Source of the DNA: Methylococcaceae bacterium
Lineage (GTDB): Bacteria; Pseudomonadota; Gammaproteobacteria; Methylococcales; Methylomonadaceae
NCBI GenBank assembly: GCA_030693065.1
Contig: JAUYBL010000007.1
Span: 16,710 to 80,709, forward strand
Reading direction: 5' to 3'
Length of the DNA: 64,000 bases
Below the pieces are notes generated by a model that ran no database searches, was not told where the DNA came from, and saw only the letters and a program-made list of their open reading frames with translations. Positions 1 to 39,239 of the stretch are shown piece by piece. Position 1 is the first letter of the stretch. Each line of letters begins with the position of its first letter. The position numbers and the translations under genes are program-made.

Positions 1-1
1 T

Positions 2-778
2 GTTGTCGGTGTCGAAGCCAGAAAGCTGTTTGAGGATGCGCAAATCATGCTGAAAAAAATCATCAATGAAGAATGGTTAACAGCACGCGCGGTGGTTGGC
101 TTTTTCCCGGCCAACAGCGAGGGCGATGATGTCCTGGTATACACCGACGAATCACGGCAACAAGTGCTGGAAGTGCTGCATCACCTGCGCCAACAAAATA
201 TCAAAGCGCCCGGTCGCCCCAATTTCTGTTTATCAGACTTTATAGCCCCCGCTGATAGCGGTAAAGCTGACTATATCGGCGGTTTTGCCGTCACTACCGG
301 CATAGGCATTGAAGAAAAACTGCAGCAATTCGAACAAGATCACGACGATTACAGTTCTATCATGCTTAAAGCCTTGGCAGACCGTTTGGCAGAAGCTTTT
401 GCAGAATATTTGCACCAAGTCGTGCGTAAAGAATATTGGGGCTATGCGCAAGATGAAGAACACAGTGCCGAGCAGCTAATTCACGAAGCTTATCAAGGTA
501 TACGACCTGCCCCCGGCTATCCCGCCTGCCCCGATCACACCGAAAAAGCCAAGTTGTTCGAGTTGCTCAATGTCACCGAAAACACCAGCATTGAACTCAC
601 CGAAAGCTTTGCAATGTACCCGGCGTCTGCCGTAAGTGGTTGGTATTTTTCACATCCTGAATCCCAATACTTCAACGTCGGTAAAATTGAGCAGGACCAA
701 TTGCAGGATTACGCCAAACGTAAAAACATGGCCGAAGAAGTTGCCGCACGCTGGTTGTCGGCACACTTAAATCATTGA
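2..778 (+). CDS. metH: Methionine synthase (MetH) C-terminal activation-domain portion; the gene is 5'-truncated by the window edge.
   Basis: The reading frame is open from nt 2. The translation VVGVEARKLF..IINEEWLTARAVVGFFPAN..GIRPAPGYPACPDH matches the conserved MetH C-terminal (AdoMet-binding reactivation) domain. Confidence 0.8.
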   Translation, partial: VVGVEARKLFEDAQIMLKKIINEEWLTARAVVGFFPANSEGDDVLVYTDESRQQVLEVLHHLRQQNIKAPGRPNFCLSDFIAPADSGKADYIGGFAVTTGIGIEEKLQQFEQDHDDYSSIMLKALADRLAEAFAEYLHQVVRKEYWGYAQDEEHSAEQLIHEAYQGIRPAPGYPACPDHTEKAKLFELLNVTENTSIELTESFAMYPASAVSGWYFSHPESQYFNVGKIEQDQLQDYAKRKNMAEEVAARWLSAHLNH

Positions 779-6214: not shown

Positions 6215-7219
6215 GAACGCCTTTTATGTTGAATTTGTTGACACCAGGGCGACGACGAGCCTAGACCGCTAATAAAGCAGGTTCTTAAAAATAGCCGCTT
6301 GTGGACGATTCCCACTCCACTGCTATGGCTTTGTAAGTATAAATGACCATTTAAATTCAATTTGTGTAGCCTCATAGGGTTAATCGAACGTTAAAGTACT
6401 TGTCCGATTAAGCACATTTTATCCTATCGTCATTTAAAATTCGTGCTCGCTGATCAACATTCTGGTGAGGACGTGGTTTAGCGGAACAATTTAAAAATAA
6501 TCCACAGTTGGTGTTTCTGTCGCTAGAAGGTGTGTTGGTACTTGAATGATCGGCGCCCTTCCCTTGGTAACGCAACCATATGGAGAATCCGCGACCCGAG
6601 AGCACTTCGTCAAACTTGGCCCGGACGGAACGCTGGTAACAATACGAGGCGGGTCAATGACTCCACGACGAAGGATCGCCATTTTTCAAAGGATTCACCG
6701 CGTAATGCTGGCGTCTAATTCGAAGTTCATCCATTAGACATTTTCGGCTAAGGCGGGCTTACATTGCGGCCTTAGGGTTTGCAACTTGTCATCAATATTT
6801 TGGCAACCTTTAGATTTAACGTTATCACTAAGAGCCCTGCATCTTGCAAAGCGTCAAACCTAAGCTAAACGCCGTAGTCGCTTCTCAGAAAAATTCGGTT
6901 CGCCAATAAGTTAAGCCATTTAATTTAACTCATCTCGGTTTAAATCCGCCCTTCAGGCATTAGTGCCAATACTCCGTGTGAGCTAAAAATTTTTATTAGC
7001 GATTCTAAACTTATACTAGAAATGATCTAAAAATTAGCTTAGCATATGTAAAAATGTGATGCGCATCACATTATACATCTTTCCAAGTTAGTAATTTGTC
7101 TTGACAATGTGGTTTTTACCTTTTCTGTGTTAGCTATTTTTCGATCAAAAATTGAAAGCCGCAGACCCCGAAACCTGTCTAGTTCAAATCGTTATAAAAC
7201 ATTTAAACTCAATTTTTTG

Positions 7220-8317
7220 ATGAAAAAAATCCTTTGTGTAGTAGGTACGCGTCCGGAAGCCATTAAAATGGCGCCGGTGATTTTAGCGCTAAAAAAAGAA
7301 CCGTGGGCAAATGTAAGAGTACTGGCAACCGCCCAGCACCGCCACATGCTCGATCAGGTATTGAATTTCTTCAATATTACTCCTGACATCGACCTGAATA
7401 TCATGCGTCCCAATCAGGCACTCACCACTTTAACTGCTCGTTTATTGTTAGAAATGGACGACGTATTGTTGAGCGAAAAGCCTGATGTCGTGCTAGTGCA
7501 GGGTGATACCACCACAGTTATGTCCGTCGCACTGGCATGTTTTTATCATCGTATCGCTGTGGGTCATGTCGAGGCCGGCTTACGCACATGGGACATCAAT
7601 AACCCGTTTCCAGAAGAAGCCAATCGAGTCATTGCCGGGCGTTTGGCGCGTTGGCATTTTGCTCCTACCGAAAGCTCCAGACAAAATTTACTGCGCGAAG
7701 GTATTTCGGATCAAGACATATCCGTGACCGGCAATACCGTGATCGATGCATTGCTGATGACGGCTGCCAATGATTTGGAGTTACCTATTGAATTGGACCC
7801 AGCCAAACGTCTGGTATTAATTACCTCACATCGCCGTGAAAATTTTGGCGAGCCGTTCCGGAATATCTGCTTGGCTCTACGGACATTGTCCGAACGCAAT
7901 CCGGAGGTGCAGTTTTTGTACCCGGTTCATCCCAATCCCAACGTCAAAGATGTTGCCTATGAATTGTTGGCCGACAGACCGAATATTATTTTATGCGAAC
8001 CGCTGGATTACGCACCGTTTGTCGCTGCATTGAAACGCGCCTATCTGATTATTAGTGACTCAGGTGGCGTGCAGGAAGAAGCCCCAGCTTTGGGCAAGCC
8101 TGTGTTGGTACTGCGAGATGAAACCGAGCGTCCAGAAGCGGTAGACCAAGGCGTCGTTAAATTAGTTGGCGCCGATTATGATCGTATCGTTAGCGAAGCC
8201 CAGCGATTGTTAGATGACGAAAACGCATACCGGGCCATGGCTCAGGGGATCTCCCCCTACGGTGACGGTCATGGCGCGGAGAGAATAGCCAAAATACTTA
8301 GGGACTATTTTTCCTAA
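7220..8317 (+). CDS. wecB: UDP-N-acetylglucosamine 2-epimerase (non-hydrolysing, WecB/MnaA type).
   Basis: MKKILCVVGTRPEAIKMAPVI N-terminus, ..HVEAGLRT.., ..SDSGGVQEEAP.. Start taken at the internal ATG (7220) with canonical N-terminus; the ORF-track start (7109) adds a non-homologous leader. Confidence 0.85.
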   Translation: MKKILCVVGTRPEAIKMAPVILALKKEPWANVRVLATAQHRHMLDQVLNFFNITPDIDLNIMRPNQALTTLTARLLLEMDDVLLSEKPDVVLVQGDTTTVMSVALACFYHRIAVGHVEAGLRTWDINNPFPEEANRVIAGRLARWHFAPTESSRQNLLREGISDQDISVTGNTVIDALLMTAANDLELPIELDPAKRLVLITSHRRENFGEPFRNICLALRTLSERNPEVQFLYPVHPNPNVKDVAYELLADRPNIILCEPLDYAPFVAALKRAYLIISDSGGVQEEAPALGKPVLVLRDETERPEAVDQGVVKLVGADYDRIVSEAQRLLDDENAYRAMAQGISPYGDGHGAERIAKILRDYFS

Positions 8318-8416
8318 CGTCAAACTGCCCGACAGTCACGCTGTAGTCATAAAACCCTGACATTATTTGGAAATCATTCGCTAAGGCCCGTGCCGAGCTA
8401 GCTTTACAAATATACG

Positions 8417-10015
8417 ATGTTGATTGCAGCCCTGAATACCATTTCCAATCACTCTTTAAATCTAAACAAAAATAAACATTTTTATATGTCTGCTTCGATA
8501 TACAAATTAGTAGCGTTGCCATTGTCAAAATTCCACAGATGGGCCTTTCTTGCGGTATTTTCCGCTGTTGCCTTATATACGCACTTTGGCAGTCGAAGCC
8601 TGGAGGCATTTAGCTCAGTCTTGCCGATTAATCTGCCAGCCATCGTTGGGGACTTGGCACTCGGCGAACGTATTTTTGGCATATTCGGATATTTCGCATC
8701 CATACTGCCGCATGCCTTACCGGAGCTTCAGTTCAGCGTCTCTTGGCTCGTCAATATTTTTATATCGCTATTTCTACTGATCCTGCTGCTGTTATTTTTC
8801 TATACCGTTCGTCATTATCATTTCACGCTGAATCGTTTATTCGGTCATCAGCGCCATCCTTATATCGATATCGATTCGGCTGACTGGCCGAAGATCACTA
8901 TTTTTATCGCGGCCCATAATGAGGAAGCGGTCATCGCAGGTTGTCTCGAAGCCTTACTGGAGGTGGATTATCCAGCCGATAAAATCCTGCTGATGCCTCT
9001 TAATGATCGCTCAACCGACCGGACACGAGAAATCATCGACGAATTTGTTAGTCAATATCCCGGCAGGATTCAGCCTTTTCACCGAACCAGCGGCAAACCC
9101 GGCAAGGCCGCAGCGCTTAAAGATGCCACCGAATTGGTCGACACTGACATTATTATCGTCTTTGACGCAGACTATGTGCCAGCCAAAGGGCTAATCAAGC
9201 ATCTCGTGGCGCCGTTTTTTGATCCTGAAGTCGGCGCTGTGATGGGACGCGTCGTGCCTCAAAACGTCAGCTCCAGCTTGCTCACCCGTTTGCTTGATTT
9301 AGAACGTTCCGCCGGTTATCAGGTGGACCAGCAGGCGCGGATGAATATGGGCTTAGTACCCCAGTACGGCGGAACAGTGGGTGGTATTCGTCTTCGAGCC
9401 TTAGAGAGTTCTGGCGGCTGGCATGACGATGTGTTGGCGGAAGACACCGACCTGACCATTCGATTTTTGCTCAACAATTGGAAAACAGTGTATCAAAACC
9501 GGGCCGAATGTTACGAGGAAGTGCCCGAAGAATGGCCGGCCAGGGTTAAGCAGATAAAACGCTGGGCAAAAGGACACAACCAAGCGTTATATCGGCATTT
9601 TCGCAAAATCTTGTTTATGTCCGGACTCAAGCCTCAAGAAAAACTTGATGCCATGGCGCTACTCGGCGTTTATGCCATGTCGCCTCTGCTGATTTTCGGC
9701 TGGGTAATTGGCATCGTGCTTTATTATTGCAATCTCAGCCCGATACCCGATTTAGCGCTGAGTTTGTTCGCAATGTCGGCGTTTAGCGTGTTGGGGAATT
9801 TTGCGGCTTTCTTTGAAATCGCCGCGGCGGTTTACTTGGATGGAAGCCAGCAGCGTATTCGGCTCTTGCCCTTCACCGTGATCGGTTTTTTGATCAGCAT
9901 GACGTCGATTTCCATGGCCACTCTGGAGATGATGGCCGATTCAGTCCGCTTGAATCCCCGCGAATTGAAATGGGATAAAACTCCACGTTACCGCAAAGTT
10001 GAGGTGGATGCCTAA
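8417..10015 (+). CDS. Integral-membrane processive family-2 glycosyltransferase (cellulose/chitin/PNAG-synthase-like beta-glycan synthase).
   Basis: N-terminal TM helices, a GT-A core with ITIFIAAHNEE, DxD (IVFDADY), AEDTDL and the processive-synthase Q-x-x-R-W motif (QIKRWAKG), and several C-terminal TM helices. The start is uncertain (8417 or the internal Met at 8486). Confidence 0.75.
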   Translation: MLIAALNTISNHSLNLNKNKHFYMSASIYKLVALPLSKFHRWAFLAVFSAVALYTHFGSRSLEAFSSVLPINLPAIVGDLALGERIFGIFGYFASILPHALPELQFSVSWLVNIFISLFLLILLLLFFYTVRHYHFTLNRLFGHQRHPYIDIDSADWPKITIFIAAHNEEAVIAGCLEALLEVDYPADKILLMPLNDRSTDRTREIIDEFVSQYPGRIQPFHRTSGKPGKAAALKDATELVDTDIIIVFDADYVPAKGLIKHLVAPFFDPEVGAVMGRVVPQNVSSSLLTRLLDLERSAGYQVDQQARMNMGLVPQYGGTVGGIRLRALESSGGWHDDVLAEDTDLTIRFLLNNWKTVYQNRAECYEEVPEEWPARVKQIKRWAKGHNQALYRHFRKILFMSGLKPQEKLDAMALLGVYAMSPLLIFGWVIGIVLYYCNLSPIPDLALSLFAMSAFSVLGNFAAFFEIAAAVYLDGSQQRIRLLPFTVIGFLISMTSISMATLEMMADSVRLNPRELKWDKTPRYRKVEVDA

Positions 10016-10017
10016 TC

Positions 10018-11118
10018 ATGTGGACTTCACTGCTTTTTGCCAGTGCGGCAGGCATGTTTCTAATGCCACTAATACCGGCCTTGCTTGAGCTAAGGCTCAA
10101 GCGCGATATCGAACCGGTGGCGGTAGATCAGGCCAACGCCGGCAACATCGATTATTTCGCGGAAAGTTTCCAAACCTTCATCACCGATGCGATTGATGAC
10201 TATCAATCGGGAAAGACCGATCGTCTAGTGCCGCAAAATTATTCTCTTTATGAGCTCGACAGTCATTTTCAGCCGACGGAGATCGAAGCAAAGCAAGCAA
10301 TCGCCGATAGACTCATAGTCGGTTTTGGTGAGTTGTTTTTGCCTGCGGGTTTTAATTTCAATCAGGAAATATTCGGCAAAAGGAACGTTAACAGCGGCGA
10401 AAACTGCCGCTTGCGCTCTGTTTTGGCACTGGAGAAACTGGTGCTGGGCAAAAATACCCAGCTTTTACGCTGGGCGCACGCCCGTAACATTTTCGCCGCC
10501 AGCGGCTGCGTATTACTGGGTAGAGTGTCTGCAGAAGCCGAGTTTCGCCTGCAACCCTATTGCCAATTTGCCCGTATCAATGCCAATCCGATTTTTGTGG
10601 ATAGCGGCAATGATGTGGATGTTTTGTGTCAGGCATCTAAGCAGTCAAAAACACCTGTCGTAGCGCTTCAATACTTTGTCGATTCCGCCGGACGAGTGAT
10701 GCTGAACAACAACCTGGATTTCCCGGAACACGGAAGTTGGCAGGGCGATATGGTGATTAAGGGCGATGCGTTGATACGCAGAGGCGCTTATATCTCCGGC
10801 AGTTTGAAAGTGTACGGTAATGTTCTGATTGAGCCGGGCGTTGAGATTCTGGGCGCTATTATCAGCAATAAAACGCTAACAATTGCCAGCGATTGCTTGC
10901 TCAACGGCCCGCTGGTCGCTGAGCAAGTCATTGAGATCGATAGCCGCTGCCGTATCGGCAGGTCTGGGGTGCCGAGCACCGTCACTGCGCCGATCATTCG
11001 AATCGCATCTGGAACCCGTGTGTATGGCAGTCTTTGGGCCAGAGAACGCGGCGAAATCGTAGACTCTCTTTCTAACGGCCAACGCGCCGCCCACACTAAC
11101 TCTAAACATCTGAGTTAG
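10018..11118 (+). CDS. Membrane-anchored bactofilin-domain (DUF583, beta-helix) protein, a putative accessory subunit of the GT2 synthase.
   Basis: Starts 2 nt after the synthase stop. An N-terminal hydrophobic helix (MWTSLLFASAAGMFLMPLIPALLEL), then a C-terminal ~110-aa region with the bactofilin-like repeat pattern (IKGDALIRRGAYISGSLKVYGNVLIEPGVEILGAIISNKTLTIASDCLLNGPLVAEQVIEIDSRCRIGRSG). Confidence 0.55.
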   Translation: MWTSLLFASAAGMFLMPLIPALLELRLKRDIEPVAVDQANAGNIDYFAESFQTFITDAIDDYQSGKTDRLVPQNYSLYELDSHFQPTEIEAKQAIADRLIVGFGELFLPAGFNFNQEIFGKRNVNSGENCRLRSVLALEKLVLGKNTQLLRWAHARNIFAASGCVLLGRVSAEAEFRLQPYCQFARINANPIFVDSGNDVDVLCQASKQSKTPVVALQYFVDSAGRVMLNNNLDFPEHGSWQGDMVIKGDALIRRGAYISGSLKVYGNVLIEPGVEILGAIISNKTLTIASDCLLNGPLVAEQVIEIDSRCRIGRSGVPSTVTAPIIRIASGTRVYGSLWARERGEIVDSLSNGQRAAHTNSKHLS

Positions 11119-11122
11119 TCCG

Positions 11123-13051
11123 ATGCAATTTATTAACCCTACCCAAATCATGAGTGATAGTTCTTTCGAGCCAAGCTCGTCGACGCCTGATACAGTCCGT
11201 CCTTCAACAGGTCGAACTGTATTTAAAGGCCGGGTTAATCGTTTGCTGATGGTATTGCTAATCTGCTTTAATCCGACGAACTCCGAGGCCGAACCCTTAA
11301 AGTTGGACGGCTATCAGCAGCTGGATGGCGCTATCACTATTTTTCACAATGGCGATAACGTCGACCCTTATTTTGCCGGTAAAGCCTTGTTGGCAGCGCT
11401 GGACGCGGGCATGGATATAAGAGCCGTAGCCTACTCATGGATAGCCTGGGGCTTGCAACATCAGCGCCAGGATGGTGGTTTCGATAGATTTTGCCGCAAA
11501 AATGGCAATTGGAGCGCTTGCGCAGCTGCGGATGCTGATGACTCGGCCACCGCGGTATGGATTGAGTTGTTGGTCAAACTAGCTCCAGACGCCGGGATGC
11601 CGCCGATCTGGTTGGAGAGCCTTAAGCGCGCGCACCAATTACTGGAAAGCCTGAAAGATCAGAATAGTCGTGTTTACTTCATCTCAGCCAAGCAACCGGT
11701 TGGGTTATTGATGGACAATGTCGAAGTCTATACAGCGTTATCGGCATTGAGTCATTTTAAGGAAAAAACCGGCGAACCCGTGCAGGCCAAGCTATTAGCA
11801 GCCCAAGCAGATGCGTTGGCGAGCGATATTGTCCAAGTGTTTTGGCAGCCTTGCAGCAGCAGCTTCAGGGTCTCAACCCAAATGCTCACCCAGCCCGGTT
11901 TTTATCCCGATAAGGTCGCGGAAATTTTTCCGATTTTGGCGCAAATGCCGGTTCCCGGTCGCGATCACGTCGCGTTTTTTCGGCAATGGTTAAGCGTTAA
12001 TCGCGGGACTTGGTTCCGTCAGGCCAGTATCGATTTTCCGTGGGGATTGGTAGCGATTGCGGCTAGCCAGCTCAAGGAATACGAAAGTGTAAATTGCTGG
12101 CTGGCGTTAGCTGCACCATTGCGCCACGGTAGTCATTGGAATGTGCTTGAGGAGGCAGCGTACGAGTCCCTTTACAGCAATAATCCTCATCCAGCATCGT
12201 GTCAGGTGACAGACCCGCAAAAAAAATCGTCATTTTCTCTGGCAACTCCAGAGAATCTGCGGGCGGTTAAGTCGAATCAGCAGGCTCTGGAATTGCAATG
12301 GAATCCGGTTGCCAGTTCCAATCATGCAGTAGCCTACGAAATTTATCGCGATGGCAAATTTATTGCCACGAGTCGAGTTCCGTTTTATGTCGACAATGCC
12401 GTTGTAAGCTCCACTCGCTATAGCTATAGCGTCACAGCCTACGATGATTTTGGGCATATTTCCGATACTTCCCAAGCAGTTAGCTTAAACACCGTCGCAG
12501 GCCAATTTGCTACCGTGTATCTGGAGACCAAATCCAATCGAGTCAAAATCCACTTGCCGAACCAAGCGGGCGAAAACGATTTGCTGATGGAATCCGCTTG
12601 CCCGCATTTTCTGAAAAAAACGCTTAGTTTGGGTGATGCAACCCAGATTTCGGTGGCCTTTGCCGATGACAACGGGCTAATCGACGATAACCAGGGAAAA
12701 AATTACTTGCTGACCGCTGGTTTAACCACTATCGGGCGAGGCACTGTCAATGTTGCAACCAATCCTTGTCTGGATCGAGAGGCTCCGGGAACTCCGAGTA
12801 ATTTGAAACAAGTTAGTGTAGATCGGCATTCGGTCAACATTGCTTGGACTGCAGCGAACGACAATCAAGCAGTGACGAGTTATTTGGTGCTGCGTAACGG
12901 CGCCGAAATTGGTGAAACCACGCAAACTCAATTTTCTGATAACTGTGTAGCGCCCAAGGCAACCCAACAGTATCAGGTGCGCGCGTTGGATTCCTCTGGC
13001 AATCAATCGGCCGAAAGCCTGCCATTGCTCGTGACCATTCCGAATGAGTAA
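11123..13051 (+). CDS. Secreted protein: N-terminal alpha-helical (probably (alpha/alpha)-barrel glycoside-hydrolase-like) domain plus two C-terminal fibronectin type III domains.
   Basis: A signal-like segment (LLMVLLICFNPTNSEA). Two FN3 units (PENLRAVKSNQQALELQWNPVAS..YEIYRDGKF..YSYSVTAYDDFG; PGTPSNLKQVSVDRHSVNIAWTAAND..YLVLRNGAEIG..YQVRALDSSGN). The exact start is uncertain. Confidence 0.55.
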   Translation: MQFINPTQIMSDSSFEPSSSTPDTVRPSTGRTVFKGRVNRLLMVLLICFNPTNSEAEPLKLDGYQQLDGAITIFHNGDNVDPYFAGKALLAALDAGMDIRAVAYSWIAWGLQHQRQDGGFDRFCRKNGNWSACAAADADDSATAVWIELLVKLAPDAGMPPIWLESLKRAHQLLESLKDQNSRVYFISAKQPVGLLMDNVEVYTALSALSHFKEKTGEPVQAKLLAAQADALASDIVQVFWQPCSSSFRVSTQMLTQPGFYPDKVAEIFPILAQMPVPGRDHVAFFRQWLSVNRGTWFRQASIDFPWGLVAIAASQLKEYESVNCWLALAAPLRHGSHWNVLEEAAYESLYSNNPHPASCQVTDPQKKSSFSLATPENLRAVKSNQQALELQWNPVASSNHAVAYEIYRDGKFIATSRVPFYVDNAVVSSTRYSYSVTAYDDFGHISDTSQAVSLNTVAGQFATVYLETKSNRVKIHLPNQAGENDLLMESACPHFLKKTLSLGDATQISVAFADDNGLIDDNQGKNYLLTAGLTTIGRGTVNVATNPCLDREAPGTPSNLKQVSVDRHSVNIAWTAANDNQAVTSYLVLRNGAEIGETTQTQFSDNCVAPKATQQYQVRALDSSGNQSAESLPLLVTIPNE

Positions 13052-13230
13052 ACAGGCCAGGAGCTGTGTAAATCCGACTCGATTACCTGCTTGTCCAATT
13101 TTTGCAGCAAGCGCCGCAAGTAGGCATAAATAACAGACAACATGACATAAGTGTCAGGCTTAATGACATCGCTGGTTGTCAGCGCCGTTTAATTTTTTTT
13201 AAGTATCTGTATTTAATAGAGTTATATCGT

Positions 13231-13246
13231 TGGCACTCAACTTGCT
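13231..13246 (+). promoter_or_regulatory. Sigma-54 (RpoN) promoter, -24/-12 elements.
   Basis: TGGCACtcaacTTGCT is a perfect match to the TGGCAC-N5-TTGCW consensus with correct GG-N10-GC spacing. It lies 40 nt upstream of the small ORF at 13286 and about 270 nt upstream of the CE4-like gene. Confidence 0.6.
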
Positions 13247-13285
13247 TTAACATCTTTTGATTACTGTTTTATTAATGGAAGTATC

Positions 13286-13510
13286 GTGACCCCTTCAAAG
13301 AAAAAATTGAAATTGTTCAGATCTGCACTCGCACAGATCCTATATGTAAATAATGCTCAAGCTTCAAATTTTCCAGGTGGTTTTACCGACTTTCAAAATG
13401 ACGTAAATGGCGTTGAATATTCTGTTCAAGCTAAGAATTGGCTTCCAAGTGGCGCCGCCAGTGGTGCTGATGCTGGCTTGCGAAATTCCTTACTCGAACC
13501 ATTGAGATAA
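13286..13510 (+). CDS. Possible small secreted protein (74 aa, GTG start) translationally coupled to the downstream CE4-like gene.
   Basis: N-terminus KKKLKLFRSALAQILYVNNAQA resembles a signal peptide. The stop TAA abuts the ATG of the next gene (GAGATAATTATG). It lies directly downstream of the sigma-54 promoter. Confidence 0.3.
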   Translation: MTPSKKKLKLFRSALAQILYVNNAQASNFPGGFTDFQNDVNGVEYSVQAKNWLPSGAASGADAGLRNSLLEPLR

Positions 13511-13512
13511 TT

Positions 13513-15351
13513 ATGTTTTTAATTCGATGGATCATTTTATTAGCAATATTGACACTAACTGTGGTCAAAGGTTTCGACGGCATACCTGCTCTGAGCGATC
13601 TACGCCAAGAAAAACTGGCGCTAGCGCTGCTAGTTCCTGATGAAGCCAATCTTGATGATCCTAAATTGACCGCCTGGCTGGATGCCGCAAGTGAGCAGGG
13701 CGTCAAACTGGATGTGTTGACTGCCAGCCAATTTCTCCGGCCTTATCCATTCAGTCTGTCCAGATATGCCGGGGTAATTCTACCGGACTCGATTCATAAG
13801 ATGATGAGTGAGACCTTGATCGGCGGCGTGCATGATTATGTCAGTTCGGGCGGTAAGCTTATGTTGGTGTTTGATGCGGGCACTTTATTGCCTCCAAATC
13901 AAACCTATGCCCAAGGACAATCGCTGTTTTCCGATCTAGTCGGCGTCAATTACGCGATGTATGACACCTTAGGCGATAAAACCATTGCCATGTCCGAGGT
14001 GTTTGGTGAGCAAGTCGCGTTTATTTCGCTACACGTGCCACCGGGAAAGTTTTCTGCTTCCCAAAGCGGCAATCCGCAATTGATGAGCTTATCGGGTTAC
14101 CAAAACGACAGTGTTGAGTATTCGTATTTTGTTACAGACACACAGTTTTCCGGCAAAACCTTATTATCCGGGAAGGGCAATAAGGTGATTGCGAGTGTTA
14201 ATACTTTCGGCACCGGTCAGGTGTTATTTATTAATTTGCCGCTTGGCTATCTGAAAAATCGCACCGACGGTGTATTGCTAAATGGATTCATGCATTATTT
14301 TTCAGAAAATATCGTCAAGCTACCCACATTATCTTCAGTTCCCGACGGGCTTGGTGGATTGATTGTCAATTTACATATTGATTCAAACGCTAATTTGCCG
14401 GGCTTGATCGCCCTAAAAAAGAAATCCAAGTTTTTTAATTACGGACCTTATTCAGTGCATATCACCTCCGGCCCTGATGTAAATGTTGAAGGCGATGGCT
14501 TGGGGTTCAATCTCTCGAAAAACAAAGAGGCCGCGGAATGGGTGCGTTTTTTCCAAAAACGCGGTGACCAAATCGGTAGCCATGGCGGCTGGATACATAA
14601 TTATTTCGGTGAATTTGTCACCGACGCTAATCAAGATTTATTTACTCCGCTGCTGGAAAAAAATAAACAAGCGCTCGAGGCTATTCTCAATCACCCGGTA
14701 AACGAATACTCGGCCCCCATGGGGAATCATCCGGATTGGGTCACCAAGTGGTTGGATAATCAGAATATTGGCAGTTATTACTTTACCGGCGATATCGGTT
14801 CAGGTCCGACCAAATCTTATCGTGATGAAGCCAGACCGGCAGGCAAAGCCTGGGCATTCCCAGTTTTGACCATGGGTAAGCACGCCTCCTTCGAAGAAAT
14901 GCATGAAAGTCGGGTTGAAGAAAAAATTATCGACCAATGGCTAAATGCCGTATCAACGTTTACCGCTGACAATCGAGTTGCCAGACTTATATATTTTCAC
15001 CCTCCCGGTATTCTCGATTATCCAAGTGCTATCGATAACTGGCTGACAAATTCCGATCAACTTAATAAATCGGGCCGTTTTAATTGGTACACCATGTCTG
15101 ATATTGCCAAATTCTTAGATGAAAGAGAAAAAACGGCATGGAATATTAATCGTGTCGATAATGGCCAAGTAGTTTTGTCTGCCGAAAATATAAACTCCTT
15201 AGCGCATATGACTTGGTTATTACCAAAATCAGCTTATGAAAATCCGGAAATATTATCCGGAAATGTAAATATTTCTCAAGATGACAAATATTTAATTATT
15301 CGGGCTATCGATGGAAAAAGTTTAAAGGTTAATTTGCGAAGCAGCTTGTAA
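13513..15351 (+). CDS. Secreted or membrane-anchored two-domain protein with a C-terminal divergent CE4 (NodB-homology) polysaccharide-deacetylase-like domain.
   Basis: N-terminal signal/anchor. Candidate CE4 motifs: H-I-D (VNLHIDSN), H-x4-H as in PgaB (GSHGGWIH), an RxPYG-like EYSAPMGN, and a late YFHPPG. It is paralogous over its whole length to the C-terminal 760 aa of the 17334 gene. Confidence 0.5.
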   Translation: MFLIRWIILLAILTLTVVKGFDGIPALSDLRQEKLALALLVPDEANLDDPKLTAWLDAASEQGVKLDVLTASQFLRPYPFSLSRYAGVILPDSIHKMMSETLIGGVHDYVSSGGKLMLVFDAGTLLPPNQTYAQGQSLFSDLVGVNYAMYDTLGDKTIAMSEVFGEQVAFISLHVPPGKFSASQSGNPQLMSLSGYQNDSVEYSYFVTDTQFSGKTLLSGKGNKVIASVNTFGTGQVLFINLPLGYLKNRTDGVLLNGFMHYFSENIVKLPTLSSVPDGLGGLIVNLHIDSNANLPGLIALKKKSKFFNYGPYSVHITSGPDVNVEGDGLGFNLSKNKEAAEWVRFFQKRGDQIGSHGGWIHNYFGEFVTDANQDLFTPLLEKNKQALEAILNHPVNEYSAPMGNHPDWVTKWLDNQNIGSYYFTGDIGSGPTKSYRDEARPAGKAWAFPVLTMGKHASFEEMHESRVEEKIIDQWLNAVSTFTADNRVARLIYFHPPGILDYPSAIDNWLTNSDQLNKSGRFNWYTMSDIAKFLDEREKTAWNINRVDNGQVVLSAENINSLAHMTWLLPKSAYENPEILSGNVNISQDDKYLIIRAIDGKSLKVNLRSSL

Positions 15352-15497
15352 AGCTTATCAAGTAAATTGGCATTCAATTACAAAATAACATTACTAATAA
15401 CCGATGAGCATAAATAAATTATTCGCGATCGGTTTTGGATATATTCAATATTTTTTTGTTACACCATTTATTTATGTTTTTATTATTTAGGAAGCGA

Positions 15498-16286
15498 ATG
15501 CGATACGGGATTCTCCTGCTCACGGCTTGTCAATTATGTACCCCATTGGCAGCCGCCGACGAACCTGCGCCTTTTCAAAAAAGCGGTTATGTGCAACTTG
15601 ATATTGGATATGCTGATTTGACAAATCATTTCCAAAACTGGTTTGACCAGTCTTTAAGGGGATATGCTCAGGTCACACCTAATGACGGAATCAATTGGGA
15701 AGTATCCCATCAGAGCCACTTTGCCGAACAGGGAGTGCTTGGCGCGCTAGGGTATCAACGCGTTTTTAATGACGAATGGTATGGCTCGATCAGTGCTTCG
15801 ACTAGTAGCGACGGGTCTTTTTTGCCGTTATACCGCACCGATGCGAATTTATACAAAAAGTGGTTGGATAGGCGAAATTTAGTGACTGGGGTCGGTTTTA
15901 CCTATAGCCAGAGCCGACTAAAAAATTATGATCGTATCGTTTCACTTGATCTTCTTTATTACTTCGACGCGCCATGGATACTCGAACTTGGGGGAAAGAT
16001 TGCTGAAAGTAATCCAGGGAGCGTGGCATCCCACCGAGGGTTTGCAGCGCTAACTTATGGTCAACATAAACATTATTATTTGACCGCGAAATTCGATTAT
16101 GGAACAGAGGGTTGGCAAGCAATCGGGGCAACACAAACAATTAGTAGTTTTGTTAGTCACGAAGCATCGCTCAATTTAAGAACATGGATTAGTAATGACT
16201 TCGGTTTTTCATTGACAACCAATCACTATTCAAATCCAAACTATAGCCGCACCGGAGTCATTGCCGGCATATTTGTCGATTTTTGA
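15498..16286 (+). CDS. Outer-membrane beta-barrel protein, YaiO-like.
   Basis: Signal peptide (MRYGILLLTACQLCTPLAAA), alternating amphipathic beta-strand pattern with Y/W/F girdles, and a C-terminal aromatic residue (..GIFVDF), the typical OMP terminus. Size (about 260 aa) and composition are consistent with the YaiO family. Confidence 0.45.
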   Translation: MRYGILLLTACQLCTPLAAADEPAPFQKSGYVQLDIGYADLTNHFQNWFDQSLRGYAQVTPNDGINWEVSHQSHFAEQGVLGALGYQRVFNDEWYGSISASTSSDGSFLPLYRTDANLYKKWLDRRNLVTGVGFTYSQSRLKNYDRIVSLDLLYYFDAPWILELGGKIAESNPGSVASHRGFAALTYGQHKHYYLTAKFDYGTEGWQAIGATQTISSFVSHEASLNLRTWISNDFGFSLTTNHYSNPNYSRTGVIAGIFVDF

Positions 16287-17089
16287 TCATGCCTGAGAAC
16301 GTTAAAAAACACTATAGGGATCTAACCGCGCTCAGCAAGCGGGGCGTACTTGGAGAGATTATTCCGGAACATCGGGCTTTATTTCGCTCCCATTTTTCCC
16401 GTCTAAATTGGCTGATTATCCTATTTCTGCCGATTCTATTTAATTATGTCGTTTTTGAATCAATGACCTTGATAAGTCAGATTTGGGCAACCTTGTTTGA
16501 GTTTTGGGTTGGGAAAATCGAGATACCGGGCAAGGTGCTGATGTTCGCTACAAACTTAGTAAACCGTGAACTTCTGTTACCTGAGTTATTTATCGTCACC
16601 TCGGCGCCGAGCGCTCAAGATTGGTGGCTATTAGCGCTAATAACCGTGGCTTTATTAGTGTTGATGTATTCCCTTCCAAAGTACTTAATGCCCTTGAGTT
16701 ATATCATTGGTTTTTTAGCGTTGATTATGTTGAGTTCGTTGATTTATTTCTCGATTATGCCGGCCAAGTTTTCTTATACGATTTCCGGCTATTTAAATAA
16801 TCTTACGGTTTCCGCTATTTGGTTGATGTTAGTAATTCCCTGGATTCATGCACTTATTTATTACATTTTCGATTTTTCTTTTTTTAAAAAGGGATTGTTA
16901 ACGACACTAACACTTGTTTTTATAATATTAGCTTTGCCTTTTCAGTTATTGGTTCAGGCGGTCATTCTTGTCAAATATTCAATTATTATGTTGCCGGTTT
17001 TAAATGTTTTTTTCGGATTATTTTTATTGATTCTCTGCTGTTTGTCTTTATATGGCTGGGCAATGAGTTGGGAGCGACATTCTCGATAG
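16283..17089 (+). CDS. Polytopic inner-membrane protein of unknown function (about 8 TM helices).
   Basis: Highly hydrophobic 268-aa ORF overlapping the stop of the OMP gene (ATGA). Confidence 0.45.
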   Translation: MIMPENVKKHYRDLTALSKRGVLGEIIPEHRALFRSHFSRLNWLIILFLPILFNYVVFESMTLISQIWATLFEFWVGKIEIPGKVLMFATNLVNRELLLPELFIVTSAPSAQDWWLLALITVALLVLMYSLPKYLMPLSYIIGFLALIMLSSLIYFSIMPAKFSYTISGYLNNLTVSAIWLMLVIPWIHALIYYIFDFSFFKKGLLTTLTLVFIILALPFQLLVQAVILVKYSIIMLPVLNVFFGLFLLILCCLSLYGWAMSWERHSR

Positions 17090-17140
17090 TAATAATTGAC
17101 GGTAATATTTTTTAAAAAGGTTTTGCTAAGAGTTGTATTT

Positions 17141-17167
17141 AATATAATCCCTATTAGGGATTATATT
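17141..17167. promoter_or_regulatory. Perfect 11-bp inverted repeat (AATATAATCCC-N5-GGGATTATATT), a candidate transcription-factor operator upstream of the 17334 gene.
   Basis: Seen directly in the AT-rich 245-nt gap between 17089 and 17334. Confidence 0.35.
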
Positions 17168-17333
17168 CTGCATTAGGAAATTATTAGAAGTGCGGCTATT
17201 GGCGAAGAAATGAGCTTTTTGTTTAATAACTGGAGCGCATATAAAAATCTATCAGTATTTTAATGACGATATTTGGCATGCGAGTATTGATAGTTAATTT
17301 TTCAATTTTTTTATTTCACTTTATGGATACATT

Positions 17334-20258
17334 ATGAGTACATCACTCCCTTTTAAAAGGAATGCTTACGTGTCGGCTGTGAGCTCCTTGCTGATCTCAG
17401 GTCTCAGCGCGGTCGCAATGCCGCTTCAAGCCGCTGAACTGGTCGTCAATGGCAGTTTTGAACAACCGGCAATTCCCTATTTAAGCTGGAAACTAAGCTC
17501 CACGTTATCCGGCTGGAAGCTTGGTGCTGAAAGCAAGGGTAATAGATTCGAACTTCAAAACAATGTTGCAGGGGCTCCGCAAGCCAAGTTAGGCAACCAA
17601 TTCGCAGAATTGGATTCCAACGGTACCACATTGATTTATCAAGACATTCCGACTACGCCTGGAACTGTCTATCAGCTGCGGTTTCATTTTTCCGCTAGAC
17701 CGGGCGTTGTCGACAACCAGCTGCAGGTCAAATGGGGCGGTACCGTCGTTGGTAATATAAAAGCCAGCGGGTTTCTCAAATTCAATACGGTTTGGAAGGA
17801 TTACACTTACAGCGTGACTGCAACCGGTACCACTACCCGTCTGAGTTTCAGTAACCTTGGAGAAGTCAGCGATAGTTTCGGGGCTTATCTGGATGGCGTC
17901 AGCGTAGTTCCGGCCGACACTACTACTGCTCAAAATTCGACAAAGCTGGCCATTCTATTGCCTGACATCAATGCTGGCTCGACGCCGACCGATGCCTTGA
18001 GCACTCCGGCTGCACAGGCTTGGCTGGATGCAATTAAAGAAGAAGGCTTCAATGTGGAAGTCATTCGCGATAGCCAGTTTGCCTCGGTCGCCGGTAAATA
18101 CAAAGCTGTCATCTTGCCCGATGCGGTACACCAGATCGCTAGCGAACAGTTGTTGAGCGACATTTCCGCTTATGTTAAAGACCAAGGCGGTAACGTGCTG
18201 ATCGTTTACGATTTTGGCGCCCTGAACACTCAAGGCCTCTTCCCGACTTCGGGCCCGAATCCGTTCAGCAACCTAGTCGGCGTCGACTATAACCTGTACG
18301 GTGAGTTATACGGTCAAACCACTCTGTCTCCGGTCGGCTTGGGCCCAATTTACGGTATGGAAAGTACGCTGTGGAAGATGCAAGTACCGCCTGGTAAATA
18401 TATGACCTGGCCTACTGAGGGTTCAGCGACTTTCACCATGGCATCCACTAGCGAGATTGCCACTGCAACAGATCCGGAAAACACACCTACCGCCTATCTG
18501 AAAACCGATAGCAAGGATCCCGGTGGTGTGCGCAAATTCGATGCAGGCTATATTCATCGCATTCCATTCGGACACGAGAAAGGCATCACTCCGGATCAGA
18601 TTTTTGCTGCCCAATCTGAAAAGATTCCCCACAGCGCGTTGATCGGCAAAAGGCCAAACCGGCACAAACAGAACCCGGTTCCGTATTCTCCAGACGACAG
18701 CTTGCAAGGCGTATCTAGCTATTTGTATGGCTTTCTGACCTATCCGACCTACGTTACCTGTAACCTGGGCCATACCTCCAGTGCGAGCGATATAGCTAAC
18801 TTCGACAGCAATTGCACTACCACCGGAGAAAGTTATACCGGTAACCCATTGCTGGTATCTGACAGATTCGGTCTGGTGGCTGGTCACGCATCGCGCGGCA
18901 ACGGTAACGTAATGTTCGTCAATTTACCGTTGAGCCGTCTCAAAACTCAAACTGATGGTTTGTTGATGCATGGAGCAATCCGTTATTTTGGCGACGATTT
19001 ATCACAACTCCCAAGATTGGCTTCTGTGCCAAACGGGATTCCTGGTATGACAGTCAATGTGCATGTTGACTCCCAAGACGCCTTGGCACCAATCAACGAA
19101 ATGAAGGCTGCCGGTATTTGGGATAATGGTCCATTCTCGGTGCATTTCACCGGTGGTCCGGTCGTTGATTATCAAGAATGTCTAGCCGATAGCAACGGCT
19201 TGCCGATCCGCTCGTTGCCTGTCAACGGTCAACCGGCCACTTGCGCGAATTTGATCGCTAACCCGCTGGGTGATGTGGTTTATCAAAAAGACGTCAACGG
19301 TAACAAAATCGTTAAGTCAACTGCGGCAGTCGGTTTGAATATCCCCAATAATTCTGCGGCCAAAGCGGCTATTCAATATTTTGCCGCGAAAGGCCATCAG
19401 ATAGGTGCGCATGGCGGTTGGTTGCATGACTACTACGGCAATAACGCACATGACGATATTTACGACCTGTCGACAACTCCGTCAACCTTGGTCAATCCAT
19501 CCAATCAGGCTACTTACCAACCTTATTTAGAGTTGAACAAAACAACTGTCGATAAAGTTGTCGCTCGAAAAACCACCGAGTATTCGGCGCCAATGGGTAA
19601 CAACTCAAAATGGGCGGTCAACTGGTTAGAAAACAATGGGGTGTTGGGTGCTTATTTCTTGGGTGATACCGGCATGGGAGCGACAAGGCACTGGCGCGAA
19701 GGCGACCTGCTGAACCAATCAATCTGGATGTTCCCCGTCACCCCGCTGGGCTTGTACGCCACCTTTGAGGAGTTTACCGAATATGGCGTGGATACTGCTG
19801 ACGTCACCAATTGGCTAACCAAATTGGTTGATTTCGAAGTCGTTAACCGCACGAACCGCTTGGTGTATTTCCACCCGCCTGGAGCAGTAGACTACTTACC
19901 ATCGCTGCAATCGATGATTGATAGAGCCGATAGTTATGCAAACAGCAGTAACCACGACTTCAAATGGTACTCGATGACCGACATTGCCAAATTCATGACA
20001 AATCGGAAGCAGGTCAGCTGGTCAGTTACACCGCAAAGCGGCAAGTTATTGTTCCAGGCTTCTCATCCAAGCAGTCTGGTAGGTCAGACTTGGATTCTGC
20101 CCAAAGAGGAATACAATAAACCGACGGTGAATTCCACTTACAACTACTGGACGCTTTGGGGCTATAAACCCTCAGCAACAGTCTCGGAAGATGGTGAAGC
20201 TTGGTTGGTAACAGTGAATTCTGGTACCAGTATCAGTTTTACCGTATCTGCCAAGTAA
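17334..20258 (+). CDS. Large secreted protein with an N-terminal DUF642-like carbohydrate-binding-type beta-sandwich domain, a middle domain and a C-terminal CE4-like deacetylase-like domain paralogous to 13513..15351.
   Basis: Signal peptide (..AVAMPLQAA), the ELVVNGSFEQP..GW..G..FELQ..AELDS motif typical of DUF642-like domains, then regions collinear with the 612-aa paralog (VNVHVDSQ, AHGGWLHDYYG, EYSAPMGN, VYFHPPG). Confidence 0.55.
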   Translation: MSTSLPFKRNAYVSAVSSLLISGLSAVAMPLQAAELVVNGSFEQPAIPYLSWKLSSTLSGWKLGAESKGNRFELQNNVAGAPQAKLGNQFAELDSNGTTLIYQDIPTTPGTVYQLRFHFSARPGVVDNQLQVKWGGTVVGNIKASGFLKFNTVWKDYTYSVTATGTTTRLSFSNLGEVSDSFGAYLDGVSVVPADTTTAQNSTKLAILLPDINAGSTPTDALSTPAAQAWLDAIKEEGFNVEVIRDSQFASVAGKYKAVILPDAVHQIASEQLLSDISAYVKDQGGNVLIVYDFGALNTQGLFPTSGPNPFSNLVGVDYNLYGELYGQTTLSPVGLGPIYGMESTLWKMQVPPGKYMTWPTEGSATFTMASTSEIATATDPENTPTAYLKTDSKDPGGVRKFDAGYIHRIPFGHEKGITPDQIFAAQSEKIPHSALIGKRPNRHKQNPVPYSPDDSLQGVSSYLYGFLTYPTYVTCNLGHTSSASDIANFDSNCTTTGESYTGNPLLVSDRFGLVAGHASRGNGNVMFVNLPLSRLKTQTDGLLMHGAIRYFGDDLSQLPRLASVPNGIPGMTVNVHVDSQDALAPINEMKAAGIWDNGPFSVHFTGGPVVDYQECLADSNGLPIRSLPVNGQPATCANLIANPLGDVVYQKDVNGNKIVKSTAAVGLNIPNNSAAKAAIQYFAAKGHQIGAHGGWLHDYYGNNAHDDIYDLSTTPSTLVNPSNQATYQPYLELNKTTVDKVVARKTTEYSAPMGNNSKWAVNWLENNGVLGAYFLGDTGMGATRHWREGDLLNQSIWMFPVTPLGLYATFEEFTEYGVDTADVTNWLTKLVDFEVVNRTNRLVYFHPPGAVDYLPSLQSMIDRADSYANSSNHDFKWYSMTDIAKFMTNRKQVSWSVTPQSGKLLFQASHPSSLVGQTWILPKEEYNKPTVNSTYNYWTLWGYKPSATVSEDGEAWLVTVNSGTSISFTVSAK

Positions 20259-38988: not shown

Positions 38989-39239
38989 GCCCTTCGACGG
39001 AGCTCAGGATGACCGGTCATTTGTTGATTTCGTTTGTGGTCGACTGCACGGATGCAGGAGGTAGGACACCAACAGTAGGCGCTTTAGGCGACGCAGGAGC
39101 AGTTGCCGAGAGCCTGTCGAACCAAACGTAATAAATTAATTTATAAGGTACCGTTCGCACTGAGCTTGTCGAAGTGCAGAATGATATTCGAAAATGCCAA
39201 AGTACCAGATTCCTTACATGCAAGAACCCAAGGACCACG

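Follow-up and report, generated by a model that had tools for sequence, protein, structure and literature searches.

Partial de-N-acetylation makes the biofilm polysaccharides poly-N-acetylglucosamine (PNAG), Pel, and galactosaminogalactan (GAG) cationic and adhesive, and every time such a modifying enzyme was newly characterized, a CAZy family was founded on it (CE18, CE21, CE26). In Bacillus cereus PelA_DA (PDB 9ZAU), the founder of CE26 and CBM114, a single-pass transmembrane (TM) segment is followed by an α/β/α domain (residues 62-253), a distorted (β/α)7 carbohydrate esterase domain (254-543), and a β-sandwich that runs to residue 610 (PMC13254593). Aspergillus fumigatus Agd3 (PDB 6NWZ) likewise comprises an α/β/α domain (CBM87), a CE18 barrel with a 64-residue β2-insertion, and a β-sandwich (PMC7229062), and human NDST1 (PDB 8CCY/9F6Z), stated to be homologous to Agd3, has a Rossmann-like N-terminal domain joined to its deacetylase (PMC10864358). 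Here we describe two paralogous genes, for proteins of 612 and 974 residues, on a 64,000-nucleotide stretch of a Methylococcaceae bacterium genome (GenBank assembly GCA_030693065.1, contig JAUYBL010000007.1, positions 16,710 to 80,709, forward strand; the whole stretch is called the window, and positions are counted from its first letter). Both lie in an exopolysaccharide (EPS) operon, and both probably encode metal-dependent polysaccharide de-N-acetylases that act on the operon's hexosamine polymer, in the periplasm or at the cell surface.

Paralogy of the two proteins is confirmed far beyond chance. BLASTP aligned residues 207-582 of the 612-residue protein with 496-934 of the larger one (33% identity, E = 6e-81) and, as a collinear second block, residues 18-180 with 186-356 (33% identity, E = 9e-24); pairwise MAFFT alignment gave 36% identity over 605 columns. 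This bears out the collinearity over about 600 residues proposed in a first-pass annotation of the window, and all the motifs quoted there are present. In the 612-residue protein these are H288-I-D290, S-H357-G-G-W-I-H362, E398-YSAP, and Y494-FHPPG; the 974-residue protein has H577-V-D579, H693-GGWL-H698 (here after Ala in place of Ser), EYSAP (749-753), and YFHPPG (845-850), preceded by NGSFE (39-43).

The AlphaFold2 (AF2) model of the 612-residue protein (pLDDT 92, pTM 0.90) shows an N-terminal helix, an α/β/α domain (residues 32-270), a (β/α)7 barrel of the NodB type (278-540), as the first-pass annotation had predicted, and a β-sandwich (542-610). The same three core domains recur in the 974-residue protein, whose model is confident in this shared core only. 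Assignment of the first of these domains as GATase1-like agrees with its fold and with a match to Glyco_hydro_42M (PF08532) that lies just above threshold; 23 of 36 family members match this profile. Because the 612-residue protein contains no Cys, the domain cannot be an amidotransferase; by analogy with CBM87 and CBM114 it is probably non-catalytic and extends the substrate-binding groove. The C-terminal β-sandwich of both proteins had been overlooked, as had the insertions specific to the 974-residue paralog.

PelA_DA, set against the window proteins from its published description, is the closest architectural match: its domain boundaries are almost those of the 612-residue protein, and both proteins have about 610 residues. 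PelA_DA is also encoded in a synthase-type EPS operon, and it has a Pro at the position of CE4 motif 3 (MT3) and a His at the end of β7. On the other hand, its own motifs are D262-D263, H-x3-H (H350/H354), a base-coordinating Arg458, and H488, whereas the window family has H-x-D, H-x4-H, and no assigned Arg. Furthermore, PelA_DA acts on α-1,4-GalNAc (Pel) and belongs to a Gram-positive pel operon, unlike the window operon with its WecB-like epimerase, PgaC-like family 2 glycosyltransferase (GT2), and YaiO. 9ZAU did not appear among the matches listed in any search, possibly for want of an entry in the libraries. Agd3 shares the three-domain architecture, and like the window family it lacks an MT4 Asp and has 3QBU and 3RXZ among its nearest single-domain neighbors; an insertion of about 50 residues in the 974-residue paralog occupies the topological position of the Agd3 β2-insertion. 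Of the Agd3 motifs (D377-D378, H510-x3-H514, R613, H668), however, the window family shares the CM4 His, with H-x-D at CM1, H-x4-H at CM2, and no assigned equivalent of the CM3 Arg. Nor was Agd3 reached by the family sequence profiles, and the genes reported to accompany its bacterial homologs are GH114 and Pel-like ones, not those for YaiO, an epimerase, or a PgaC-like GT2.

Structural searches gave a consistent set of neighbors. Human NDST1 ranked first in a Foldseek search with the 612-residue model (577 aligned columns, E = 2.7e-10), albeit with a low TM-score (0.31), and the 974-residue model retrieved PelA, NDST1, ArnD, and HP0310. NDST1, a protein of type II membrane topology, resembles the window proteins in having a Rossmann-like N-terminal domain and then a (β/α)7 deacetylase whose substrate is a HexNAc-containing polymer, the link being fold similarity by Foldseek only. 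It differs in its D319/D320, H389-x3-H393, and H529 and in its C-terminal sulfotransferase domain, which the window proteins lack; the Pfam NDST-family profile HSNSD had no match at E up to 1 among the 36 members. The nearest single-domain neighbors were ArnD (a lipid-linked Ara4FN deformylase), 1Z7A (a relative of PuuE-type allantoinase), and HP0310. The neighbors found here are the same 'NodB1.2' proteins (3QBU, 3RXZ, and 1Z7A) to which, according to a review of NodB variation, Agd3 and ArnD are both most closely related in structure (PMC10967932).

Conservation of the putative active site was assessed in an alignment of 171 homologs from both subfamilies (120 short-form and 49 long-form sequences in the motif 1 counts). 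H288, H357, H362, and H496 are essentially invariant, H288 being kept in 119/120 short-form and 49/49 long-form homologs, and R491, Y494, P402, W360, and G358/G359 are invariant or nearly so. In the AF2 model the conserved polar residues all lie at the C-terminal ends of barrel strands (β1, 281-289; β2, 314-317; β3, 353-357; β4, 398-401; last strand, 490-495). Motif 1 reads N-L-H288-I-D290-S, in place of the adjacent Asp pair of the MT1 sequence TFDD, and position 290 is Asp or Cys. The invariant S-H-G-G-W-(I/L)-H, with its H-x4-H spacing, departs from the canonical MT2 H(S/T)xxH, and E398-Y-S-A-P402 keeps the Pro of the MT3 sequence RxPY and has no Arg; R437 and R491 are conserved, and neither was assigned as the equivalent of the CM3 Arg. 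H496, which directly follows strand 490-495 and is His in 171/171 homologs, has the position of the catalytic-acid His of the MT5 sequence LxH. Both window paralogs keep the full conserved set. An apparent loss of D328 from the 974-residue protein is probably an alignment artefact near its β2 insertion, given that the long-form alignment shows D647 to be conserved.

The single-domain relatives offer a register for these residues. In HP0310 (HpPgdA), D14 binds Zn together with H86 and H90, and D12 and H247 hold the water, motif 1 being D12-x-D14 (PMC3084791). ArnD likewise has R-I-D9-V-D11 as motif 1, and both thus share the i/i+2 spacing of the window family. Alignment of the family profile with ArnD by hhalign (3.6% probability, good for the MT2 register only) placed IGSH-GGWIH on VGLHA-WDH, with the extra MT2 residue after the first His. 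We infer from these comparisons that D290 would be a metal ligand, H288 would occupy the catalytic-base position, H357 and H362 would be the MT2 pair, and H496 would be the acid, D290 being assigned as ligand because of its register and its position as the first residue after β1. It should be noted that HP0310, ArnD, 3RXZ, and 1Z7A are single-domain proteins for small or lipid-linked substrates, with H-x3-H and with Asp where the window family has H288.

Variation within the family fits this assignment of D290. In 20 of the 49 long-form relatives, a Burkholderia/Cupriavidus clade (homologs P0129-P0149, from Burkholderia, Cupriavidus, Trinickia, and metagenomes), D290 is replaced by Cys, and the replacement co-varies with that of S400 by Ala (19/20) and of H316 by Val or Ser, as a metal ligand and its second shell should behave. 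The H-x-C clade suggests a Cys/His/His metal center as in peptide deformylase.

The first-pass annotation had called the H-x4-H motif PgaB-type. The spacing does occur in PgaB of E. coli K-12 (SH184TWNSH189), and PgaB is, moreover, a periplasmic partial de-N-acetylase whose partners are a synthase of the PgaC type and a porin in the outer membrane. Classification of the proteins as PgaB-type nevertheless had to be abandoned because PgaB is circularly permuted and its motifs differ. In this CE4 enzyme of the 'NodB2' arrangement, the acid His55 lies upstream of LTFD114D115, whereas the acid-position His of the window family (H496/H847) is C-terminal, as is canonical, with no conserved His upstream of β1 within the barrel; motif 1 is D-D in PgaB and H-x-D here. 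PgaB also differs in being an outer-membrane lipoprotein with a C-terminal hydrolase-like domain. It was not among the top 60 Foldseek matches of the 612-residue model, and in hhalign the family profile showed no relationship to E. coli PgaB (1.3% probability). Pseudomonas PelA (CE21, PDB 9CGY) resembles the window family in having a His two residues before an Asp in MT1 (H526-x-D528-x-D530) and in lacking the MT3 Arg, but it keeps both Asp residues and H-x3-H, has an N-terminal glycoside hydrolase (GH) domain, and is encoded in a pel operon (PMC12022489). Legionella PdaA was dismissed as a comparison, being a canonical CE4 protein of 286 residues.

The genomic setting supplies the link to a polysaccharide. 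The operon (7109-20258, + strand) has eight genes, of which the fifth encodes the 612-residue protein and the eighth its 974-residue paralog. Fifty-six retrieved loci with full flanks, from Acidobacteriota and Proteobacteria (loci L009-L088), share a core six-gene module (window 7109-17089) of epimerase, GT2, TM plus β-helix protein, deacetylase-like enzyme, YaiO, and membrane protein; its genes are found in ~93-98% of these loci, and gene order is identical in 44/56. Homologs of the 612-residue protein form 997 clusters, and a scan of species-representative genomes found at least 407 species with a relative. The window organism is a Methylobacter-like member of the Methylococcaceae, its locus being 92% identical to that of a Methylobacter metagenome-assembled genome (MAG), and the same operon, paralog included, occurs in Methylomonas. 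The core module is found in Terracidiphilus (Acidobacteriota) and in Burkholderia, where the long form is the sole gene of the deacetylase-like kind. GlmS adjoins the Burkholderia module (L006, 13379-15196), and a GH20 β-N-acetylhexosaminidase stands beside the Terracidiphilus module on the opposite strand (L002, 13575-15626); these neighbors point to a hexosamine polymer. Literature on YaiO with polysaccharide and on operons of epimerase, synthase, and deacetylase yielded no description of the module, which looks like an uncharacterized synthase-type EPS system with YaiO as its porin. The window GT2 aligns with E. coli PgaC over its full length (25% identity, E = 9e-35). The NfrB/WecB ManNAc-polymer system of E. 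coli was considered as a model for the synthase and rejected, as the GT2 has a full-length match to PgaC versus a marginal one to NfrB (E = 4e-4 over 154 residues) and E = 6e-9 to YaiP.

How the system might work can be outlined as follows. The WecB-like epimerase would make UDP-ManNAc from UDP-GlcNAc, and the PgaC-like GT2 would polymerize and translocate a HexNAc chain, which the operon-encoded epimerase and PgaC-like synthase make likely to contain ManNAc and/or GlcNAc. The 612-residue enzyme, tethered to the inner membrane by its N-terminal helix, would strip some of the N-acetyl groups to give a cationic polymer; on the model of Agd3 and PelA_DA, its α/β/α domain and barrel would make up a single long groove. 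The chain would then exit via the YaiO barrel. The 974-residue paralog would be a soluble second deacetylase, its sugar-binding-type head and extra cleft loops perhaps altering substrate reach or deacetylation pattern. In the proposed chemistry, the ligands of a divalent metal would be D290 (Cys in one clade), H357, and H362; H288, at the position of the HP0310 base Asp, would activate the metal-bound water, possibly assisted by E398 or the invariant D328; and H496 would protonate the leaving amine. Pfam scans found no acetyltransferase in the operon, which favors N-deacetylation over O-deacetylation.

Several results weigh against de-N-acetylase function. The Pfam CE4 profile, Polysacc_deac_1 (PF01522), gives 19.4 bits for the 612-residue and 13.8 bits for the 974-residue protein, below its threshold of 23.1, and covers the MT2-MT3 region only. 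With these scores, and with three of the five CE4 motifs different, the description 'CE4-like' in the first-pass annotation calls for qualification. Sequence searches of the PDB with both proteins and both family profiles (A1 and A2; E up to 10) found no solved structure, 6NWZ included; stray matches to antibody light chains, a chaperonin, and a fucosidase (E about 0.1-2) were not meaningful. Sequence alone leaves the motif 1 register ambiguous: H288-x-D290-x-N292 could, less likely, be aligned with the PelA motif H526-x-D528-x-D530, in which case D290 would be the base and the non-conserved N292 would stand at the metal-ligand position. In addition, the family has neither the canonical catalytic-base Asp nor the MT3 Arg, and HP0310 showed no activity on polysaccharides, its site being occluded and sized for small molecules (PMC3084791). 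With MT1, MT2, and MT3 all altered and HP0310 having no measurable polysaccharide deacetylase activity, one or both proteins could be inactive scaffolds or polysaccharide-binding chaperones that guide the chain from synthase to YaiO, as CE4 pseudoenzymes do. This seems unlikely, however, because the four His and the Asp/Cys position are almost absolutely conserved across two subfamilies ~35% identical, which argues for selection on chemistry and not only on binding; besides, the change from Asp to Cys with a compensating shell keeps metal-ligand chemistry, and neither window paralog has lost any of the residue set.

The missing CE4 catalytic-base Asp is also compatible with a barrel that is a glycoside hydrolase or lyase (GH57/GH38-like, or like the hydrolase modules of PgaB and PelA) and trims or releases the polymer. 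The GH38 zinc site has an H-x-D motif at the end of β1, which the motif of this family recalls. Synthase-type EPS systems usually include a hydrolase, and the core six-gene module has no recognizable one; the 642-residue accessory protein encoded by the fourth gene, found in 18/56 loci, could fill the role of the system's glycoside hydrolase or lyase. We nonetheless consider a hydrolytic barrel improbable: Polysacc_deac_1 matches the MT2-MT3 region in 35/36 family members (best E = 5.8e-8), the two-His motif together with the Asp/Cys ligand and the C-terminal His makes up a deacetylase constellation, the three-domain layout is that of the de-N-acetylases Agd3, PelA_DA, and NDST1, and no conserved carboxylate pair typical of glycosidases was identified. 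Relatedly, that the closest single-domain structures are ArnD, 1Z7A, and HP0310 would suit esterases or amidases with some other substrate: a lipid-linked sugar, like that of ArnD, a small molecule, as with PuuE and HP0310, or else O-acetyl groups or peptidoglycan. We give little credence to such substrates, since the gene is tied to the synthase/YaiO module in about 95% of loci, since α/β/α and β-sandwich domains build long polysaccharide grooves in Agd3 and PelA_DA, since the 974-residue copy has an additional head resembling a carbohydrate-binding module (CBM), and since the operon lacks an O-acetyltransferase. De-N-acetylation of the operon's own polymer is thus the function that we favor.

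EPS de-N-acetylases that have three domains and a TM anchor and are encoded in a synthase operon are a known kind of enzyme; this family, its active site, and its YaiO-containing operon appear uncharacterized. A bolder proposal, which we put forward tentatively and with some doubt, is that the two proteins represent a new carbohydrate-esterase family, a Gram-negative counterpart of Agd3, PelA_DA, and NDST in which the base Asp would be replaced by His and the metal center would be Asp-or-Cys/His/His with H-x4-H. The family might then be the modifier in an undescribed, widespread synthase-type EPS pathway, present in at least 407 species and in soil Acidobacteriota above all, that exports a partly de-N-acetylated ManNAc/GlcNAc polymer through YaiO. 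Such a sequence-distinct family, with the same architecture and an atypical constellation, would test how far the CE4 mechanism tolerates replacement of the base Asp and of a metal ligand. The module is abundant in soil Acidobacteriota, methanotrophs, Burkholderia, Collimonas, and Variovorax, and defining it would give orphan YaiO barrels a role and uncover a new matrix polymer in bacteria of environmental importance. The resemblance to the NDST1 deacetylase may also interest groups in search of bacterial, E. coli-expressible N-deacetylases for heparosan engineering.

The two paralogs differ at their N-termini. Both had been described as secreted, which is clear for the 974-residue protein, with its classical signal peptide (judged by eye and from hydrophobicity); the uninterrupted hydrophobic N-terminal helix of the 612-residue protein may instead be a membrane anchor. 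The suggestion that one enzyme is cell-bound and the other released fits these two N-termini. The DUF642-like head assigned to the larger protein, its additional ~160-190 N-terminal residues, was supported by a match to NCBIfam TIGR04362 (choice-of-anchor C) across model positions 2-157 of 157 (E = 5.5e-14; 52.7 bits versus a family cut-off of 120) and by a match to Pfam DUF642 (PF04862) just below the gathering score (E = 1.4e-5; 25.3 bits versus 27). Precomputed Pfam annotation assigns PF04862 to the cluster of this protein; a PDB sequence search with the head gave no match. In the model the head has β-strands between residues 89 and 174, of low to moderate confidence. Besides the insertions listed in Table 1, the 974-residue protein has one of 15 residues after MT2 (704-718). 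All four of its Cys residues (476, 494, 616, and 637) fall inside paralog-specific insertions, at spacings of 18 and 21 residues, a pattern that would suit an exported protein with two local disulfides.

The distribution of the 974-residue form is narrow. It is 100% identical to a protein of a Methylococcaceae MAG, and the head is carried by only three 90%-identity clusters (967-974 residues); closer relatives of 778-791 residues lack it, and a subfamily of 705-720 residues comes from Burkholderia and Trinickia. Among 80 loci scanned, the head is present in two methanotroph loci only, and a second paralog in seven, all from Proteobacteria. The 974-residue copy is a lineage-specific extra.

Table 1. 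Features of the operon and of the two deacetylase-like proteins (window coordinates; aa, residues of the encoded protein)
Feature	Coordinates	Strand	Evidence
UDP-GlcNAc 2-epimerase (WecB-like), first gene	7109..8317	+	Pfam Epimerase_2, E = 2e-119; 55/56 loci
PgaC-like processive GT2 synthase with TM segments and Q-x-x-R-W motif (KQIKRW)	8417..10015	+	Pfam GT2 families; 55/56 loci
366-aa protein with N-terminal TM segment (hydrophobic window 1-25) and β-helix-like C-terminal part	10018..11118	+	Sub-threshold bactofilin/LbH matches; 55/56 loci
642-aa accessory protein: N-terminal ~370 aa without family match, then fn3-like, CBM25, fn3	11123..13051	+	Pfam and PDB sequence matches; 18/56 loci
612-aa three-domain deacetylase-like protein, core member of the EPS module	13513..15351	+	Open reading frame (ORF); AF2 model
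612-aa: N-terminal hydrophobic helix, aa 2-29, signal-anchor or export signal (cleaved or uncleaved)	13516..13599	+	Kyte-Doolittle window 1-27; continuous helix in model
612-aa: GATase1/GH42-middle-domain-like α/β/α domain, aa 32-270	13606..14322	+	
612-aa: NodB-type (β/α)7 barrel, aa 278-540	14344..15132	+	
612-aa: motif H288-x-D290	14374-14382	+	
612-aa: motif H357-x4-H362	14581-14598	+	
612-aa: motif E398-YSAP	14704-14718	+	
612-aa: motif YFH496PPG	14992-15009	+	
612-aa: C-terminal β-sandwich, aa 542-610	15136..15342	+	DSSP of AF2 model; equivalent in Agd3 and PelA_DA
YaiO-family outer-membrane β-barrel, candidate export porin	15435..16286	+	TIGR04390, E = 9.7e-44; PF19413, E = 5e-26; 54/56 loci
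268-aa polytopic inner-membrane protein, 5 or more hydrophobic segments	16283..17089	+	Hydrophobic windows, no Pfam match; 52/56 loci
974-aa paralog: same three core domains plus head and insertions	17334..20258	+	ORF, BLASTP, model, alignment
974-aa: Sec-type signal peptide, aa 1-34 (...AVAMPLQA/AELV, slash at the cleavage point)	17334..17435	+	Sequence inspection; hydrophobic windows 11-38
974-aa: DUF642/choice-of-anchor-C-like β-sandwich head, aa 35-191	17436..17906	+	TIGR04362, PF04862
974-aa: NGSFE motif of the head	17448-17462	+	
974-aa: α/β/α domain, aa 203-560, with insertions ~358-445 (~85 aa, low-confidence) and 475-496 (22 aa)	17940..19013	+	BLASTP, model, alignment
974-aa: NodB-type barrel, aa 568-892	19035..20009	+	Motifs, family alignment, model
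974-aa: motif H577-V-D579	19062-19070	+	
974-aa: ~50-aa insertion after barrel strand β2, aa 615-664	19176-19325	+	
974-aa: motif H693-x4-H698	19410-19427	+	
974-aa: motif EYSAP	19578-19592	+	
974-aa: motif YFH847PPG	19866-19883	+	
974-aa: C-terminal β-sandwich, aa 895-973	20016..20252	+	Model

Two of the gene starts in Table 1 are likely to need revision. The ORF call for the epimerase at 7109 seems too far upstream, the true start likely being the ATG at 7220 (MKKILCVVGTRPE...), and that of YaiO is likely the ATG at 15498 (MRYGILLLTAC...), where L-T-A-C resembles a lipobox. Scans of the operon for promoters and terminators returned no more sites than did shuffled sequence.

In E. coli K-12, yaiO (L008, NC_000913.3 380069-384616) adjoins yaiX (an acyltransferase pseudogene split by IS2), yaiP (a GT2), and yaiS (a putative deacetylase). 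This is a decayed cluster, analogous in content, and it lends support to a general association of YaiO barrels with the export of polysaccharides. Elsewhere, the window encodes the Res subunit of a type III restriction enzyme (a ResIII helicase with an endonuclease domain; 39174-41984) and a PilB-type ATPase of type II secretion or type IV pili with an MshEN domain (46177-47892), and the remainder is ordinary chromosomal context (ValRS, PepA, RimO-like, MsrPQ, and a sigma-54 activator).

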